In this document: in pieces, positions 2,033 through 6,325 of the stretch
Numbering within the stretch: the first letter of the stretch is position 1
Layout: every line of letters begins with the position of its first letter
Source: an uncultured Thermococci archaeon
GTDB taxonomy: Archaea; CAYQAE01; CAYVLA01
DNA: 64,000 bases
NCBI GenBank assembly: GCA_964549615.1
Contig: CAZJVP010000072.1
Span: 38,803-102,802, forward strand
Direction: 5' to 3'
Program-made: the position numbers and the translations under genes
Notes under the pieces: model-generated
Told to the model about the DNA's origin: nothing
Databases searched by the model: none
Seen by the model: the letters and a program-made list of their open reading frames with translations, nothing else

Positions 2033-2045
2033 TAAGACTTAATAG
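2033..2045 (+). promoter_or_regulatory. Putative BRE/TATA promoter for the SRP RNA-leuA-ilvB-ilvH transcript
   Basis: taagaCTTAATAg is the only AT-rich TATA-like element between the upstream gene and leuA. Implied TSS is about 2066-2070. Confidence 0.55.
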
Positions 2046-2094
2046 CTTGCACCCAGAGCAAGGCTTCTCGGCCAAGGCCTGTTCAGCAGGATCC

Positions 2095-2128
2095 GTGGCC
2101 GATGCACAGGAAGGCAGCTTGCGGCCAA
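2095..2128 (+). CDS. leuA: Predicted exon 1 of the leuA-like gene (MADAQEGSLRP, joined to 2449 after BHB splicing)
   Basis: GTG at 2095 and TTG at 2119 are in frame with the leuA ORF only if 2129-2448 is removed. join(2095..2128,2449..4058) is 1644 nt, or 547 aa plus stop. Confidence 0.45.
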
Positions 2129-2459
2129 CCCGGCGGACTAGGCGGGAGGCTAGGCGTCTCCTGTCACCCGAAATCGTCTATACGCGGGGCTGAATGCCGC
2201 GGGGCGGTTCGGCCGCGGGACGTTGGGCCCGGGTCCCGAACGTTGACTCTCCGTCCCTCAGGGTCGGTGGATGTGGGGCCCCCTTCGGAGGAAGGCGGCA
2301 ACCACATTTGCTTTCCGAACCCCACCAGGCCGGGAACGGAGCAGTGGTAGGAAAGACATGCGGCGCTTGAGGGGCAACGGGGACGAGGTAAGGCTCGACA
2401 AGCCCACGTCCCGCGACGGGCCCACCCGCGGATGTTCGGCGGGGTCGAAGCAGGCTGCC
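2113..2459 (+). other. Canonical bulge-helix-bulge (BHB) splicing-endonuclease motif enclosing the SRP RNA
   Basis: Outer 10-bp helix ggcagcttgc(2113-2122)/gcaggctgcc(2450-2459). Central 4-bp helix ggcc(2123-2126)/ggtc(2443-2446). 3-nt bulges aac(2127-2129) and gaa(2447-2449), each 3' of the central helix. Inner helix ccg(2130-2132)/cgg(2440-2442). Confidence 0.8.
2129..2448 (+). ncRNA. ffs: Archaeal signal recognition particle (7S/SRP) RNA
   Basis: Alu domain: helices 3 and 4, UGU motif, loop-loop complementarity taggcg/cgtcta. Long helix 5 (gcgggacgttgggc/gcccacgtcccgc). Helix 6 ccttc-GGAG-gaagg (2282-2295). Helix 8 SRP54 site ccaggccgGGAAcggagcag (2325-2344). Confidence 0.93.
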
Positions 2460-4058
2460 CGATGGACGGACGGATGGACATGGGAAGGGACGGAGTTCTA
2501 CGTCTCTGACTACAACGACATCGCCCTCGAAAGGGCAAGGCTGCCCGAGCGAGTAGCGATTTTTGACACGACGCTCAGGGACGGCGAGCAGACGCCGGGC
2601 GTCTCCCTGACCGTTGACGAGAAGATACGGATCGCTTGCGCGTTAAATGAACTGGGCGTGGACACCATAGAGGCCGGATTCCCAGCAACATCGGAGGGAG
2701 AACTGAAAGCCATATCCGAAATAGCCGGCCTTGGGCTGAAGAGCGAGATCTGCGCCCTGGCACGGTCCAACCAGAAGGACATCGACCTAGCGTTGAGCTC
2801 CGGGGTCAGCTGCATCCACACGTTCATCGCGACCTCGGACATACACCTGAAACACAAGTTGAAGATGACGAGGGATGAAGCCCTGCAGAAGGCTGTCGAG
2901 ACCATAACATACGCCAAGGAACACGGGGTCGTCGTTGAGTTCTCTGCCGAGGATGCGACGAGGACCGAGCTTGGGTACCTGCTCAGGGTCTACTCAGCTG
3001 CCCAGGACGCAGGCGCTGACAGGATAAACGTCCCGGACACGGTGGGCGCCATGATACCGAGGGCTATGGGGTATCTGGTTGGCAGGGTATGCGAGGCCGT
3101 GAAAGTTCCCGTCTCTGTGCACTGCCACAATGATTTCGGGATGGCCGAGGCGAACTCGCTGGCATCCGTGGAGAACGGCGCGACACAGGTTCACGTCACC
3201 GTCAACGGTCTGGGGGAGAGGGCGGGAAACGCCTCCCTGGAGGAGGTGGTGATGTCCCTGCACTCCTTCTATGGCATCAAGACCAGCATCGTGACCCAGA
3301 AGATCTGTCCGACGTCCCAGCTCGTCTCGCGCCTGACGGGCATTCCCGTGCAGCCCAACAAGGCAATCGTGGGCGAGAATGCCTTCGCGCACGAGTCCGG
3401 CATACACGTCCACGGGGTGCTCGAGTCCGCAGCGACCTATGAGCCGCTGATGCCCGAGATGGTCGGGAGCACCCGGCGGATCGTCCTAGGCAAACACACG
3501 GGAGCGCATGCCATATCGGCCAAGCTCGGCGAGATGGGCATCAAGGCCACGGAGGCGCAGGTATCCGAGATCGCCCAGCGGGTCAAGAAGATAGGCGACA
3601 TGGGCAAGGGGATCACCGACGCCGACCTCATGGCCATAGCGGAGGCCGTCATAGGCAAAGTCCCAGAGGGCAAGCGAACGCTGGAGCTGGTGAACCTGAC
3701 GGTGGTAACCGGCGACAGGACCATACCTACTGCATCACTGGCGCTCATCGTGGACGGCAAGCGAGTTGAAGGTGCCAGCATAGGGGACGGCCCTGTGGAC
3801 GCTGCGATAAAGACGATAAAAGATGTCATCAGGGATTTTGGCAAGGTCGAATTGAAAGAGTACCGGCTCGAAGCCATCACCGGAGGTAGCGATGCGGTTG
3901 CGGAGGTCACAGTCAAGGTGATTGACGATCTGGGCAACCTTGCGACGGCCCGGGGCGTTAGCACCGACATAGTCATGGCGAGCGTTGAGGCCATGATTGA
4001 AGCGGTCAATAGGCTGTTCGCCAAGAGAGGGAAGGAAGGAGGAAAGCCAAGTGGCTGA
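2449..4058 (+). CDS. leuA: 2-isopropylmalate synthase / citramalate synthase (LeuA/CimA family), main exon
   Basis: DTTLRDGEQ, HCHND, GLGERAGN and HESGIH motifs; C-terminal regulatory domain (GDGPVDA, EAITGGSDA); directly upstream of ilvB. Start codon unresolved (see findings). LeuA versus CimA is not distinguishable by eye. Confidence 0.85.
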
Positions 4059-5811
4059 GACCATCAGCGGAGCTGAGGCCCTCATCAGGGCCTTGGAGGC
4101 AGAGAAAGTCAAACACATATTCGGCTTGCCGGGCGGCGCCATCCTCGACGTCTACGACAAGCTCTATGACTCCAAGATCAGGCACATACTCGTAAGGCAC
4201 GAGCAGGTGGCAGCCCATGCCGCGGACGGCTATGCTAGGGCGAGCGGGGAGGTCGGAGTCTGCTTCACAACATCGGGGCCGGGCGCAACCAACCTCACGA
4301 CCGGGATCGCCAACGCCTTCTACGACTCCATCCCGGTCATCGCGGTGACGGGCCAGGTCCCCACTAGGTTGGTCGGCAACGACTCGTTCCAGGAGGCCGA
4401 CACCATCGGCATCTTCATGCCCATAACCAAGTACAACGTCATGGTCAAGTCCGGGTCCGAGATACCCCAGGTCGTGAGAAAGGCCTTCATCATTGCCACG
4501 AGCGGCCGCAAGGGGCCCGTTCACATCGACCTACCAAAGGACACGCAGCAGCAGAAGATAGAGTTCGAGTACCCCCCTGCGGTGAGGATGCTCAAGCGAC
4601 TCTCCAGCCCGCAGGGACACCCGGGCCAGATCAAGAAGGCGGCCCAGATGCTTGCAAATGCCGAGCGACCGGTCATAATCTCGGGAGGCGGGGTCATAGC
4701 CTCTAACGCGTCAAGAGAGCTGGTCAAGCTCGCCGAATCGCTGATGATTCCGGTTGGAGTCACTCTGATGGGAAAGGGATCTTTCCCTGACTCGCATCCG
4801 CTCTCGCTCGGCATGTTCGGAATGCACGGCAGGAAGATTGCCAACGACATACTAAGCGACGCGGACGTCGTGGTCGCCGTCGGGATGAGGTTTGCCGACC
4901 GCGTGACCGGCGACACGTCGACCTTCTGCGCGAACGCGAAGATCATACACATCGACATCGACGCTGCAGAGATCGGCAAGAACGTGAGGCCGGAGATCCC
5001 CATCGTCGGCGATGCCAAACAGGTGCTATCCAAGCTCAACTTGGAAATAGCCAAGCTAAAGCCCGCCAAAAAGGCTGCGTACGCAGAGAAGGTCAAGGAG
5101 TTCATCAAGGAATGCACCTGCTGCCAAGACTACGCCTACGATGAGAAGCCCATCAAGCCCCAGCGCGTAATGAAGGAGCTGAACAGGCTGATAGACCAGG
5201 ACACGATCGTGGTCACCGAGGTTGGCCAGTGCCAGATGTGGAGCGCCCACTACCTGAGAATCGACCGTCCCGGCCAGTGGATATCATCCGGCGGCCTCGG
5301 GACCATGGGTTTCGGCTTTCCCGCATCGATCGGGGCGAAGGTCGCCAGGCCCGAATGCAAGGTCATAGACGTTGCAGGGGATGGCAGCTTCCAGATGGTC
5401 CTGCAGGACCTGGCCACATGCATCATCGAGGACATACCCGTGGCCGTCTGCATCATGGACAACAGGACGCTAGGCATGGTCTACCAATGGCAGGACCTTT
5501 TCTACAACAAGAGGACGTCCGCGACGCTCCTTGACCACGCAGGCGTGGGGAAGGGGAGGGCCGTGCCGGAGGTGCCGGACTTCGTCAAGCTCGCCGAGGC
5601 GTACGGCGCCAAGGGGGTGAAGGTCGACTCGCCGGGAGAGCTCGGCCCAGCCCTCAAGGAGGCGCTCTCCAGCGACATCGTCACGGTCGTTGACGTGAAG
5701 ATAGACAAGGATGAGAAGATGCTTCCCATGGTCAGGGCCGGGGGGTCCATAACGAGCATGATCCTCTCGAGCAGATGCCGGCCCGAGCCCTACCGATTCA
5801 GGGGTGATTGA
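4051..5811 (+). CDS. ilvB: Acetolactate synthase large subunit
   Basis: [28 protein letters not shown] and TPP motif GDGSFQM...N. GTG start after ggagg. Confidence 0.95.
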
Positions 5812-6325
5812 ATTGGAACGAACCCGCATCATCGCAGCTTTGGTCGAGAACAAGCCAGGGGTGCTTCACAGGATCGCCGGGCTGTTCAGCAGGAGGGGTT
5901 TCAACATCGAGTCCATAGCCGTTGGGACCACCGAGAACGAGAGCATCTCCCGGATGACGATAGTCGTGCGAGGCGATGACAGGATCTTGGAACAAGTGGA
6001 GAAGCAGCTCAACAAGCAGGTCGACGTGATCAAGGTCTCCGACCTAGACAGGGACAACAGCGTCGTGAGGGAGCTCTGCCTAGTTAAGGTCAACGCCAAG
6101 AACGAACAGAGCAAGCTCCTATTGATGAATTATGCGGAGATCTTCAGAGCCAGGATAGTGGATGTCAATACCAGCACGCTGACCCTTGAGATCACCGGGG
6201 ACGAGGAGAAGGTCAACGCGCTCATCAACCTCCTCCGGCCCCATGGAATACGAGAGATGGCCAGAACCGGGACCGTGGCCATGGCACGCGGGCCCAAGTC
6301 CACCGAGATTCCCGAAGGGGGTTGA
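5804..6325 (+). CDS. ilvH: Acetolactate synthase small (regulatory) subunit
   Basis: ACT domain ([37 protein letters not shown]); overlaps the ilvB stop. Confidence 0.95.

Follow-up and report, generated by a model that had tools for sequence, protein, structure and literature searches.

The window (the whole 64-kb stretch of DNA that was analysed) carries an SRP RNA gene directly ahead of the leuA-ilvB-ilvH genes, and the SRP RNA was found in RNA libraries as a circle joined at a motif of the bulge-helix-bulge (BHB) kind. The leuA frame that follows has no canonical start codon of its own. We consider it probable, though well short of certain, that the precursor with the SRP RNA as BHB intron runs on into the operon, and that leuA is read by +1 recoding at its 5' end, independently of the BHB. 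The family comparison covered a set of seven sequences from independent assemblies, representing three genera and including M037, M038, G000, G001, G002 and G003. All genomes compared are metagenome bins.

A full-length match to RF01857, the Rfam model of archaeal SRP RNA, was found by cmscan at 2131-2441 (+), scoring 186.1 bits where the gathering score is 96.5 and covering model positions 1-317. It is the sole SRP RNA match in the genome, so the gene is single copy. The 5' half of the BHB (2113-2129, +) consists of outer helix 2113-2122, central helix 2123-2126 and the bulge AAC at 2127-2129, and the 3' half (2443-2459, +) of central helix 2443-2446, the bulge GAA at 2447-2449 and outer helix 2450-2459, as defined by sequence, fold, alignment and the circular joint. 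The outer helix has 10 bp, including one G-U, and is present in the MFE fold of 2085-2485; the inner helix starts from 2130/2442. The motif thus has the two 3-nt bulges on opposite strands, the 4-bp spacer helix and the flanking helices of a BHB substrate. It is found at the identical place in all seven family sequences, with the central helix paired in each, and two-sided changes occur at outer pairs 4 (G-C/A-U/G-U), 5 (C-G/U-A) and 6 (U-G/C-G/U-A). RNAalifold detected two-sided changes in 20 of 116 pairs across the whole precursor, in an alignment of only seven related sequences. The canonical BHB closing the SRP RNA that a preliminary description of this DNA had reported is thereby borne out, and so is the covariation in relatives that it had suggested looking for. 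When 26 SRP loci outside the family, from other archaeal families, were scanned strictly for a BHB, none had a similar motif at the SRP termini. In other archaea the SRP RNA gene has unrelated neighbours, for instance tRNA-Ser.

RNA-library contigs were examined for 4 of the 11 listed RNA runs; such contigs give neither RNA ends nor levels. All four runs contained circular RNA contigs over 2127/2128-2448, with the joint within the two bulges. In three runs this was a 352-nt contig whose joint goes back 322 nt, from 2448 to 2127 (shorter sides 150, 31 and 28 nt). The fourth run gave a 350-nt contig made up of 2421-2447 followed by 2128-2448, which, read with a period of 320 nt, is the exact canonical cut between 2128 and 2129 and between 2448 and 2449. 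The length of each contig equals that of the circle plus 30. Three of the four circles exceed the canonical cleavage prediction by 2 nt, and one fits the canonical sites exactly. The canonical 320-nt product, defined by the RF01857 match and the circular contigs, spans 2129-2448 (+). As the contigs are circular and joined inside both bulges, the SRP RNA is cut out and closed into a circle in vivo. Apart from a 46-nt piece of leuA of other organisms, the contigs of the four runs match 2127-2448 only, and no exon-exon ("skip") joint was present among them. The genome encodes EndA domains (PF01974, three matches of 99, 66.9 and 43.4 bits) and RtcB (PF01139, one match of 607 bits). On the basis of the BHB motif and these genes, EndA and RtcB would be the enzymes making the circle, in line with the processing by the tRNA-splicing machinery that had been proposed.

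A promoter-like BRE/TATA element (AAGTAAGACTTAATAGC, 2030-2046, +) precedes the 5' BHB cut by 81-91 nt and is kept in 7/7 family sequences; across the 64-kb window the degenerate promoter motif has a single match, where 0.01 would be expected. Judged from the sequence and a leader alignment, the 5' leader ("exon 1", 2070-2128, +), whose start is a prediction, includes a hairpin as well as the processing stem's 5' strand. At the would-be leuA promoter position, no 8-mer with six or more A/T was found in any of the seven family sequences, and the longest T run in their 27-31-nt SRP-leuA spacers is 1-2. This agrees with the earlier statement that neither a promoter nor a U-tract separates the SRP RNA from leuA. 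The order SRP RNA then leuA, a synteny that had been proposed as a check, is present in 7/7 family sequences versus 0/26 SRP loci of other families, and is conserved over three genera and three metagenome contigs. Because the order, the promoter and the absence of an intervening signal are conserved in all seven, co-transcription with leuA-ilvB-ilvH is plausible. With no separating promoter or terminator and a conserved order, the precursor most likely extends into the operon, and the SRP RNA and leuA-ilvB-ilvH are thus likely to share a common precursor. The SRP RNA would then formally be the BHB "intron" of the operon 5' leader.

The leuA frame (2-isopropylmalate synthase, 2496-4058, +) runs from the FYVSDYN segment to the stop TGA at 4056-4058. 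The product matches NF002085 with 717.6 bits (curated cut-off 517) over residues 16-514, C-terminal regulatory domain included, and NF002086 with 579.4 bits (against 532). LeuA homologues carry PF00682, PF22617 and PF08502, and the N-terminal motif is homologous to that of other archaeal LeuA. Genes ilvB (acetolactate synthase large subunit, 4051-5811, +) and ilvH/ilvN (small subunit, 5804-6325, +) were assigned by profile matches. With its GTG start at 4051, ilvB has an 8-nt overlap with the leuA stop, and GGAGG stands 8 nt upstream of this start; the GTG start of ilvH/ilvN (5804) overlaps the stop of ilvB.

No ATG, GTG or TTG is present in the leuA frame from the 3' cut to RDGEQ, and the preliminary description had read the frame ahead of DTTLRDGEQ in the same way. 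The nearest in-frame starts, a TTG at -82 nt and an ATG at -91 nt, lie inside the SRP RNA. An in-frame start is missing in five of the seven family sequences, and among 14 family N-termini a canonical one is absent from seven, the other seven having some. All seven family sequences have an ATG (2480 in the window) one base out of the leuA frame, in the -1 frame. It opens ORF0 (2480-2509, +), which has nine sense codons (MGRDGVLRL) and then TGA and is conserved as M-x-RDGVLRL-stop in 7/7; further ATGs in the ORF0 frame are at 2474 and 2462. The base preceding the TG of the ORF0 start is always A, while the overlapping leuA-frame codon varies.

Positions 2486-2509 (+) form a 24-nt block that is invariant in the alignment, with 2494 as sole variable site. 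It holds the G-run AGGGAC, an ACG (2490-2492), CTA CGT C and CTC TGA C. Variable leuA-frame third positions were found in none of 8 codons in the block, versus 47 of 55 downstream (four independent genomes), which marks the block as more constrained than the rest. The Ser codon TCT is kept in it despite a share of 7% among Ser codons, and CTA (6% of Leu) and CGT (5% of Arg) are also rare. A hairpin predicted within the block (2486-2492/2501-2507; -9.2 kcal/mol at 37 C, -0.8 at 75 C) could alone explain much of the invariance.

For comparison, 19 loci were picked by the LeuA N-terminal motif. At 18 of these, which are of Bathyarchaeia type, an ATG (14) or GTG (4) is set off from the conserved leuA-frame codons downstream by exactly one base, and 11 of the 18 have no in-frame start whatever. 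All columns upstream of the ATG/GTG vary, and conservation starts at this triplet. Just downstream, the sites that vary (offsets 6 and 9) fall on third positions of the leuA frame, whereas those in the block of the hot-spring family are second positions. The Bathyarchaeia-type start region reads ATG GGG T/A, and its zero-frame stop is not conserved. In one Methanoperedens locus, ATG-A-ATA GAA GGG comes immediately after TAA TGA. No SRP RNA was found near leuA at the 18 Bathyarchaeia-type loci or the Methanoperedens locus, and no good slippery site common to the three lineages (hot-spring family, Bathyarchaeia and Methanoperedens) was found.

It had been proposed that splicing supplies the leuA start, i.e. 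that ligation of the exons by EndA and RtcB opens a 547-codon leuA ORF from GTG 2095 and makes leuA translation splice-dependent. The arithmetic is correct for this window, where alone the joined frame is open, with GTG (-34) and TTG (-10) before the junction, and the BHB is used in vivo. However, after the canonical cut a TGA or TAG between the junction and FYVSDY closes the frame in M037, M038, G001 and G003 (4/7), G002 has no start ahead of an upstream TAG, and a GTG or TTG start in the spliced leuA frame was seen in G000 only. The intron measures 320 nt in five family sequences and 319 in two, and the 3' spacer 31 or 27 nt; therefore the junction frame is not conserved, contrary to what the proposal led one to look for in relatives. 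In addition, the nearest relatives M037 and M038 have a TGA overlapping the ATG, exon 1 shows no coding conservation, and startless leuA with the same out-of-frame ATG is found without SRP RNA. We regard a splice-made start as highly improbable. A frame-restoring mRNA intron of the cbf5 type was also rejected, the frame being closed or startless in 5/7 and the intron length 319 or 320. Hardly credible at all is a mistake in assembly or sequencing, or a pseudogene in decay, with the true leuA having an ordinary in-frame ATG. The sources are all metagenome assemblies and a G-run stands beside the ATG, where an over-called ggg (near 2481-2483) had been feared. The identical ATG-plus-one-base spacing in 7/7 independent assemblies from three genera excludes this over-call, and an analogous layout is present at 18 Bathyarchaeia-type loci from many projects. 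The remaining leuA is intact and varies chiefly at third positions, and besides its product the genome has no full-length close IPMS, the paralogs being 45%, 32% and 27% identical.

Two other explanations, each of which we consider rather unlikely, concern separate parts of the preferred reading. The SRP RNA may be its own transcription unit and no mRNA intron, with a precursor that ends a short way past the stem, a BHB for maturation only, like that of pre-rRNA, and an unrecognised promoter or TSS proper to leuA. Such a unit would suit the circle being alone among the RNA contigs and the unrelated neighbours of other archaeal SRP RNA genes; promoters in archaea may be weak or atypical, and a T5 tract at 2560-2564 (G000 group) could terminate many precursors. 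This tract is missing in 4/7, however, the stem-to-ATG distance is just 27-31 nt, and both the lack of an AT-rich element at promoter distance in 7/7 and the SRP-leuA order held over three genera and three contigs argue for a shared transcript. The second explanation is a near-cognate in-frame leuA start (ACG 2490-2492), with ORF0 as a regulatory upstream ORF, overlapping this weak start and gating it, and no frameshift. Near-cognate codons occupy the homologous leuA position in all three lineages (ACG here, ATT/ATC in Bathyarchaeia and Methanoperedens). Two family proteins, represented by protein sequences alone, start exactly at that codon (MEFYVS and MGFYVS), so near-cognate initiation is possible, and G003 has a GTG one codon later. 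About 30% of the putative alternative initiation sites described for Haloferax are near-cognate (Gelsinger 2020, PMC7261190), and ORF0 ends in Val-Leu-Arg-Leu, with the rare CTA and CGT, ahead of a branched-chain amino-acid operon. Against this, conservation in Bathyarchaeia begins at the ATG/GTG and not at ATT, the triplet there switches only between two canonical starts, and the ORF0 stop is not conserved. There is also no SD at a usable distance from the ACG, as GGAGG is 1 nt away, versus 8 nt for ilvB.

Under the preferred reading, transcription of the single SRP RNA gene would start from the conserved promoter, which lies about 90 nt upstream. The precursor would carry a 3' extension and a structured 5' leader, and these would pair into the 10-bp processing stem and expose the canonical BHB. 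The tRNA-splicing endonuclease would cut both bulges and RtcB would seal the product into an SRP RNA circle of 320-322 nt. The precursor would continue into leuA-ilvB-ilvH, the SRP RNA being the putative BHB "intron" of the operon 5' leader. The leuA start would be ATG 2480, followed by one extra base and then the leuA frame, and the splice would play no part in the frame; this one-base offset of the start codon would be why leuA has no canonical start in its own frame. Ribosomes would most likely begin at this ATG and enter the leuA frame by +1 recoding in the first ORF0 codons, candidate shift sites being AGG-G (2486-2489), CTA-CGT-C and CTC-TGA-C. Translation of ilvB and ilvH would be coupled to that of the upstream gene.

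Several known systems resemble parts of this arrangement. Plagens et al. 2015 (PMC4731332) describe a permuted SRP RNA in Thermoproteus tenax, with a tRNA-splicing endonuclease site and ends ligated into a circle. The SRP RNA here is also excised at a BHB and ligated into a circle, but the gene is non-permuted and it is the natural 5'/3' terminal helix that the joint closes. Leader and trailer together form the processing stem, the trailer probably running into the operon. Haloferax volcanii HVO_1309 is described as having a 46-nt BHB intron in its 5' UTR; this intron has no known function and occurs in circular form (Schwarz et al. 2020, PMC7714728). In both cases a BHB-flanked segment of a putative mRNA leader, outside the coding frame, is excised and circular; unlike these 46 nt, the excised RNA here is the 320-nt essential SRP RNA, and the shared transcript and exon ligation are putative. 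The account of Danan 2012 (PMC3326292) includes BHBs in pre-rRNA processing stems with circular pre-16S/23S intermediates, and for Sulfolobus and Halobacterium it reports only circular segments of 7S RNA. As in pre-rRNA, the flanks form a long helix with a BHB at its base and a structural RNA is excised and circularised; the cargo, however, is SRP RNA. In the cbf5 mRNA of Crenarchaeota, as referred to in PMC7714728, a BHB intron breaks up the coding frame, which splicing makes whole again. The likeness lies in EndA-type splicing of a putative protein-coding transcript; the splice here does not restore the leuA frame.

Programmed +1 sites include CUU UGA C of bacterial prfB, UCC UGA U of antizyme and CUU AGG C of yeast Ty1. 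These share with the present locus a short zero-frame ORF with the sole start, a startless +1 main ORF, an invariant cassette and a zero-frame stop soon after, and their sites are similar to CTC TGA C and to CTA CGT C (a Leu codon and a rare Arg codon, then C). Unlike them, the locus is archaeal, and the shift, as predicted from DNA, would take place in the first 2-9 codons. It has no known autoregulatory logic, and in Bathyarchaeia conservation does not extend to the zero-frame stop. Antizyme is treated as a case of +1 PRF in a 2021 review (PMC8211752), whose account of Archaea gives only one demonstrated case, a -1 frameshift.

That the SRP RNA is a true BHB intron in the leuA-ilvB-ilvH leader, and that leuA uses a conserved programmed +1 frameshift, a few codons into the ORF opened by the out-of-frame start, in at least three archaeal lineages, is a tentative proposal, doubtful as a whole but worth stating. 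If true, each leuA-ilvB-ilvH transcript would give one circular SRP RNA, and with the leuA shift Archaea would have their first conserved cellular +1 frameshift. The frameshift could then hold down translation of an mRNA whose transcription is driven by a strong ncRNA promoter, or it could sense the supply of branched-chain aminoacyl-tRNA by way of the Val/Leu or Phe/Ile codons of ORF0.

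A full-length match to the archaeal SRP RNA family (RF01857) lies on the + strand at 2131-2441 (cmscan 186.1 bits, gathering score 96.5) and is the single SRP RNA match in the genome (3.2 Mb, 104 contigs). The flanks of this RNA pair into a bulge-helix-bulge (BHB), made up of an outer helix of 10 bp (2113-2122 with 2450-2459), a central helix of 4 bp (2123-2126 with 2443-2446), the bulges AAC (2127-2129) and GAA (2447-2449), and an inner helix running inward from 2130/2442. The outer helix was present in the minimum-energy fold of 2085-2485.

The phylum is sampled by five species genomes. 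Apart from the genome of the window (G000), the arrangement of SRP RNA followed by leuA was found in G001 (same genus) and in G002 and G003 (same family); in the fifth, AT-rich genome (G004, same class) leuA does not lie 3' of the SRP RNA. Three more contigs, M037, M038 and M039, came from scanning metagenomes with a 21-letter motif, and all three have an SRP RNA immediately upstream; two other motif matches (L035 and L036) were discarded as unrelated chance matches. Among the 33 SRP loci examined, leuA lies 3' of the SRP RNA only in these seven family sequences. All seven have a paired central helix, and the outer helix ends at 10 bp. Two-sided changes were seen at outer pairs 4, 5 and 6 (U-G/C-G/U-A, C-G/U-G/U-A and G-C/A-U/G-U), and RNAalifold recovered the outer and inner helices from the seven sequences. 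The BHB that the preliminary description had drawn around the SRP RNA, with the same flank pairing, is thus upheld by the conserved central helix and the covariation in the outer helix, and the comparison with related genomes that it had proposed showed both the gene order and the BHB to be kept in all seven.

A strict scan of 26 SRP loci of other families, which relaxed motifs would escape, detected no comparable BHB at the SRP termini. In two loci (L007 and L024) a BHB-like arrangement was seen within the terminal helices of the SRP RNA, +4 / -7 from the ends and with outer runs of 9 and 5 bp, which may be ordinary SRP structure. In five of the 26 (L001, L003, L004, L011 and L022) a tRNA-Ser(GCU) begins 1-8 nt after the SRP RNA. 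The genome of the window encodes RtcB ligase and EndA-type (tRNA-splicing endonuclease) domains (3 matches), with EndA on contigs C88 and C90. Its 16S rRNA is split across two short contigs (C46 and C78). An aragorn census detected no more than 25 tRNA genes; many contain introns, several of them implausibly long, and the tRNA set is therefore either incomplete or intron-rich.

Of 24 sequencing runs listed, 11 were RNA libraries, and four of these were examined as Logan contigs rather than reads. Each of the four gave one contig, covering only 2127/2128-2448. In X3, X5 and X7 this contig measured 352 nt and contained a joint from 2448 to 2127 (a backward step of 322, with an ambiguity of one letter); in X4 it measured 350 nt and consisted of 2421-2447 followed by 2128-2448, which reads as a circle of 320 nt closed at the canonical junction (A2448 to C2129). 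The lengths equal that of the circle plus 30, as expected when a circle is assembled with 31-mers. The strain in the RNA contigs differs from the window by C2403T and G2408A. Because the contigs of all four runs carry a circular joint inside the bulges, the SRP RNA is excised within both bulges and circularised in vivo, so that the BHB excision proposed from the motif is confirmed by RNA. Three of the four circles were 322 nt, with two extra A at the joint, 2 nt above the canonical prediction, and one was the canonical 320 nt; non-canonical cleavage, strain differences or end modification may account for the two extra nucleotides. Outside 2127-2448 the RNA contigs of the four runs yielded only a 46-nt piece (2565-2610), the loose ends of which belong to leuA of other organisms. 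The leader, the exon junction and leuA lie outside the cover of the RNA contigs, a gap which says nothing about absence.

In Haloferax, a BHB intron of 46 nt has been described from the HVO_1309 5' UTR (PMC7714728), and the permuted SRP RNA gene of Thermoproteus is BHB-processed and yields a circular product (PMC4731332). For 7S RNA, the accessible text of Danan et al. gives only circular segments (PMC3326292). The SRP gene is permuted in Thermoproteus, whereas it is non-permuted in the window; BHB excision and circularisation occur in both. To our knowledge, SRP RNA made by EndA and RtcB has so far been known only from the permuted gene, and the circles extend BHB excision and circularisation to a non-permuted one.

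Downstream of the SRP RNA, leuA (+ strand; NF002085, 717.6 bits) is the 5' gene of an operon with ilvB and ilvH. The GTG of ilvB (4051), with a GGAGG 8 nt upstream, overlaps the leuA stop by 8 nt (4039-4058 region), and the GTG of ilvH (5804) overlaps the ilvB stop by 8 nt (5800-5811 region). Since both overlap the preceding stops, the three genes are arranged for translational coupling, and a gate on leuA translation would probably act on the whole operon. A promoter-like element, AAGTAAGACTTAATAGC or a near variant, is found 81-91 nt before the 5' cut in all seven sequences; its degenerate form has one match in the window (0.01 expected). From the stem to the first ATG there are only 27-31 nt, in which the longest T run is 1-2, and an 8-mer with at least six A/T at the position of a leuA promoter was found in none of the seven, in agreement with the preliminary description, which had seen neither a TATA box nor a U-tract there. 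Since the SRP RNA ends before the 3' strand of the stem, every precursor must reach at least 2459. Given this reach and the short, signal-free spacer, a shared SRP-leuA transcript is the simplest reading, and the SRP RNA is likely an intron in the leuA pre-mRNA; co-transcription and exon ligation are what we infer from this layout. A T5 tract (2560-2564) lies within the leuA codons ATT TTT of G000, M037 and M038, not in the other four; some of the SRP precursors could terminate early there.

It had been suggested that splicing also supplies the start codon of leuA. The canonical cut (2128|2129 and 2448|2449 in the window) was applied to each of the seven sequences and the joined leuA frame was read. 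G000 has an open joined frame, which holds GTG at -34 and TTG at -10. In M037 and M038 it is closed by a TGA that overlaps the ATG, 32 nt past the junction, in G001 by TGA at +22 and in G003 by TAG at +13. In G002 an upstream TAG is reached without any start, and M039, with an in-frame ATG of its own at +16, needs no splice. With four joined frames stopped, one startless and one independent of the splice, this role of splicing had to be given up. The intron is 320 nt in five sequences and 319 nt in two, and the spacer 31 nt in three and 27 nt in four; because these lengths vary, the junction region is not coding, and the frame is not conserved across it. Read-through of the in-frame TGA of M037 and M038 was also rejected, as it cannot rescue G000, G001 and G002, which are without an upstream in-frame ATG; across the family this position reads TGG, TGA, TGT or TGC. 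A second, BHB-like micro-intron of 19 nt with an ATG in its 5' bulge would bring ATG 2474 in frame in five of the seven. It was dismissed: its 4-bp helices have G-U pairs, the inner helix is absent, such matches number 9-21 per 175 nt, and it fits none of G002, M039 and G003.

Frame reading confirmed that the leuA frame is without ATG, GTG or TTG from the SRP RNA to DTTLRDGEQ. In all seven sequences an ATG (2480 in the window) is followed by one base and then, in the leuA frame, by GGA or GAA, GGG, ACG and onward. The recurrence of this spacing excludes an over-called G near 2481-2483, which the preliminary description had named as a possible refutation. The ATG opens a short ORF (ORF0) in the -1 frame relative to leuA, with 10 codons (M-x-RDGVLRL-stop) in all seven. 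The base before TG is always A, while the overlapping leuA-frame codon varies (ACA, ATA, GTA, GCA, ATA, CTA, AGA), indicating that ATG 2480 itself is under selection.

The 5' end of leuA overlaps ORF0 in an invariant block (2484-2507), in which none of the 8 leuA-frame third positions varies, against 47 of 55 downstream, in the four independently found genomes; M037-M039 were found by means of this block and are not independent evidence for it. The block keeps TCT for Ser, although 7% of Ser codons are TCT; in its ORF0 frame stand CTA (6% of Leu codons) and CGT (5% of Arg codons). The block can fold as a 7-bp hairpin (-9.2 kcal/mol at 37 C, -0.8 at 75 C). Over 10 nt, its part 2486-2495 is perfectly complementary to the strand CTCCGTCCCT of SRP helix 5 (2249-2258) in G000 and G001, with one position switching from A-U to G-C between the two. 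The duplex energy was reached by 5-17 of 200 shuffles in five sequences and by 57-68 of 200 in two, a modest excess only. A C/D-box or K-turn reading of GATGA...CTGA was dropped, the full C box being present in G002 only.

Other archaeal LeuA proteins have a homologous N-terminal motif (aromatic/aliphatic, V/I/T, S/T, D/E, F/Y) 16 residues from 'LP', as here, so the leuA frame is read from about FYVS or VS onward. Among 14 distinct N-termini of the family (seven from DNA, seven from proteins only), seven have a canonical in-frame start (MDExCGGTG in four, M[EG]FYVS in two, MFYVS in one) and seven have none. Family leuA genes have been called from inside the SRP RNA gene (e.g. MKGHGDEVRL...; proteins P0004-P0007) or past the FYVSDY motif (P0012), and for this reason the database N-termini of these proteins are wrong.

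The same layout was found elsewhere. Among the best 80 of 554 leuA relatives, selection for [WEG]G[IV][AT]L within 30 residues of DTTLRDGEQ gave 19 loci, 18 of Bathyarchaeia type (L103-L129) and one of Methanoperedens (L125). In 14 of the 18 an ATG, and in the other 4 a GTG, stands one base before the conserved leuA-frame codons. All columns vary upstream of this triplet, and over offsets 1-16 variation is confined to 6 and 9, which are leuA-frame third positions, and 10. Eleven of the 18 are without an in-frame ATG, GTG or TTG back to the upstream stop. The stop of ORF0 is not conserved in them (MGYCFI-stop, VGYCFIQPLP-stop, MGYRFIQP-stop). In Methanoperedens the leuA frame holds TAA TGA, an ATG overlaps both stops, and one base later ATA GAA GGG ATC follows. 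The leaders of both groups have their own TATA-like element and are without SRP RNA. With Rfam, SRP RNA was detected in only the three family loci among 18 tested, and in none of 16 further loci. As the layout recurs at loci without SRP RNA, the startless leuA is independent of the SRP RNA and the BHB, and is a separate, wider and probably new phenomenon. In another Bathyarchaeota leuA locus (L063) the frame reads GTG ATG TAG, an in-frame start-stop, ~35-45 nt before the DTT codons; the conserved N-terminus comes directly after it, and no other start follows.

The start is conserved in three lineages, is ATG or GTG only, and conservation begins there, which argues for initiation at the -1-frame codon and a subsequent +1 event. 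We lean slightly towards expression of leuA by +1 recoding. All three lineages have a G-run after the start (AGGGA in the window and Methanoperedens, ATGGGG in Bathyarchaeia). In the window the shift could occur at AGG-G, with tRNA-Arg re-pairing on GGG, at CTA-CGT-C, where a Leu codon and a rare Arg codon precede a C, or at CTC-TGA-C; it could be a ribosomal slip or the loss of one G in the transcript. For Archaea, the accessible text of a 2021 review (PMC8211752) gives a single -1 frameshift as demonstrated and +1 events as no more than suggested. The main rival, which we regard as rather unlikely, is near-cognate initiation at the homologous codon (ACG in the window, ATT/ATC elsewhere), gated by ORF0; in ribosome profiling of Haloferax, near-cognate codons reportedly form ~30% of putative alternative starts (PMC7261190). 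The 16S rRNA ends in ...GGATCACCTCCT and an AGGA lies 6-11 nt before ATG 2480, which does not tell the start models apart. C-to-U editing of the ACG to AUG was set aside, the ACG lying outside the RNA-contig cover. Whatever likelihood is left falls to some mechanism other than +1 recoding or near-cognate initiation.

In the literature searched, with subscription journals outside the search, no paper was found in which archaeal SRP RNA is connected to isopropylmalate synthase, or archaeal leuA to frameshifting. The puzzling start of leuA is both conserved and widespread. Such genes are truncated or given wrong starts by gene callers, and their layout offers a candidate for archaeal +1 recoding that can be tested directly. 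If the SRP precursor runs into leuA, this would be the first essential ncRNA hosted in an archaeal mRNA leader, and the output of an amino-acid operon would be tied to the promoter of an abundant ncRNA.
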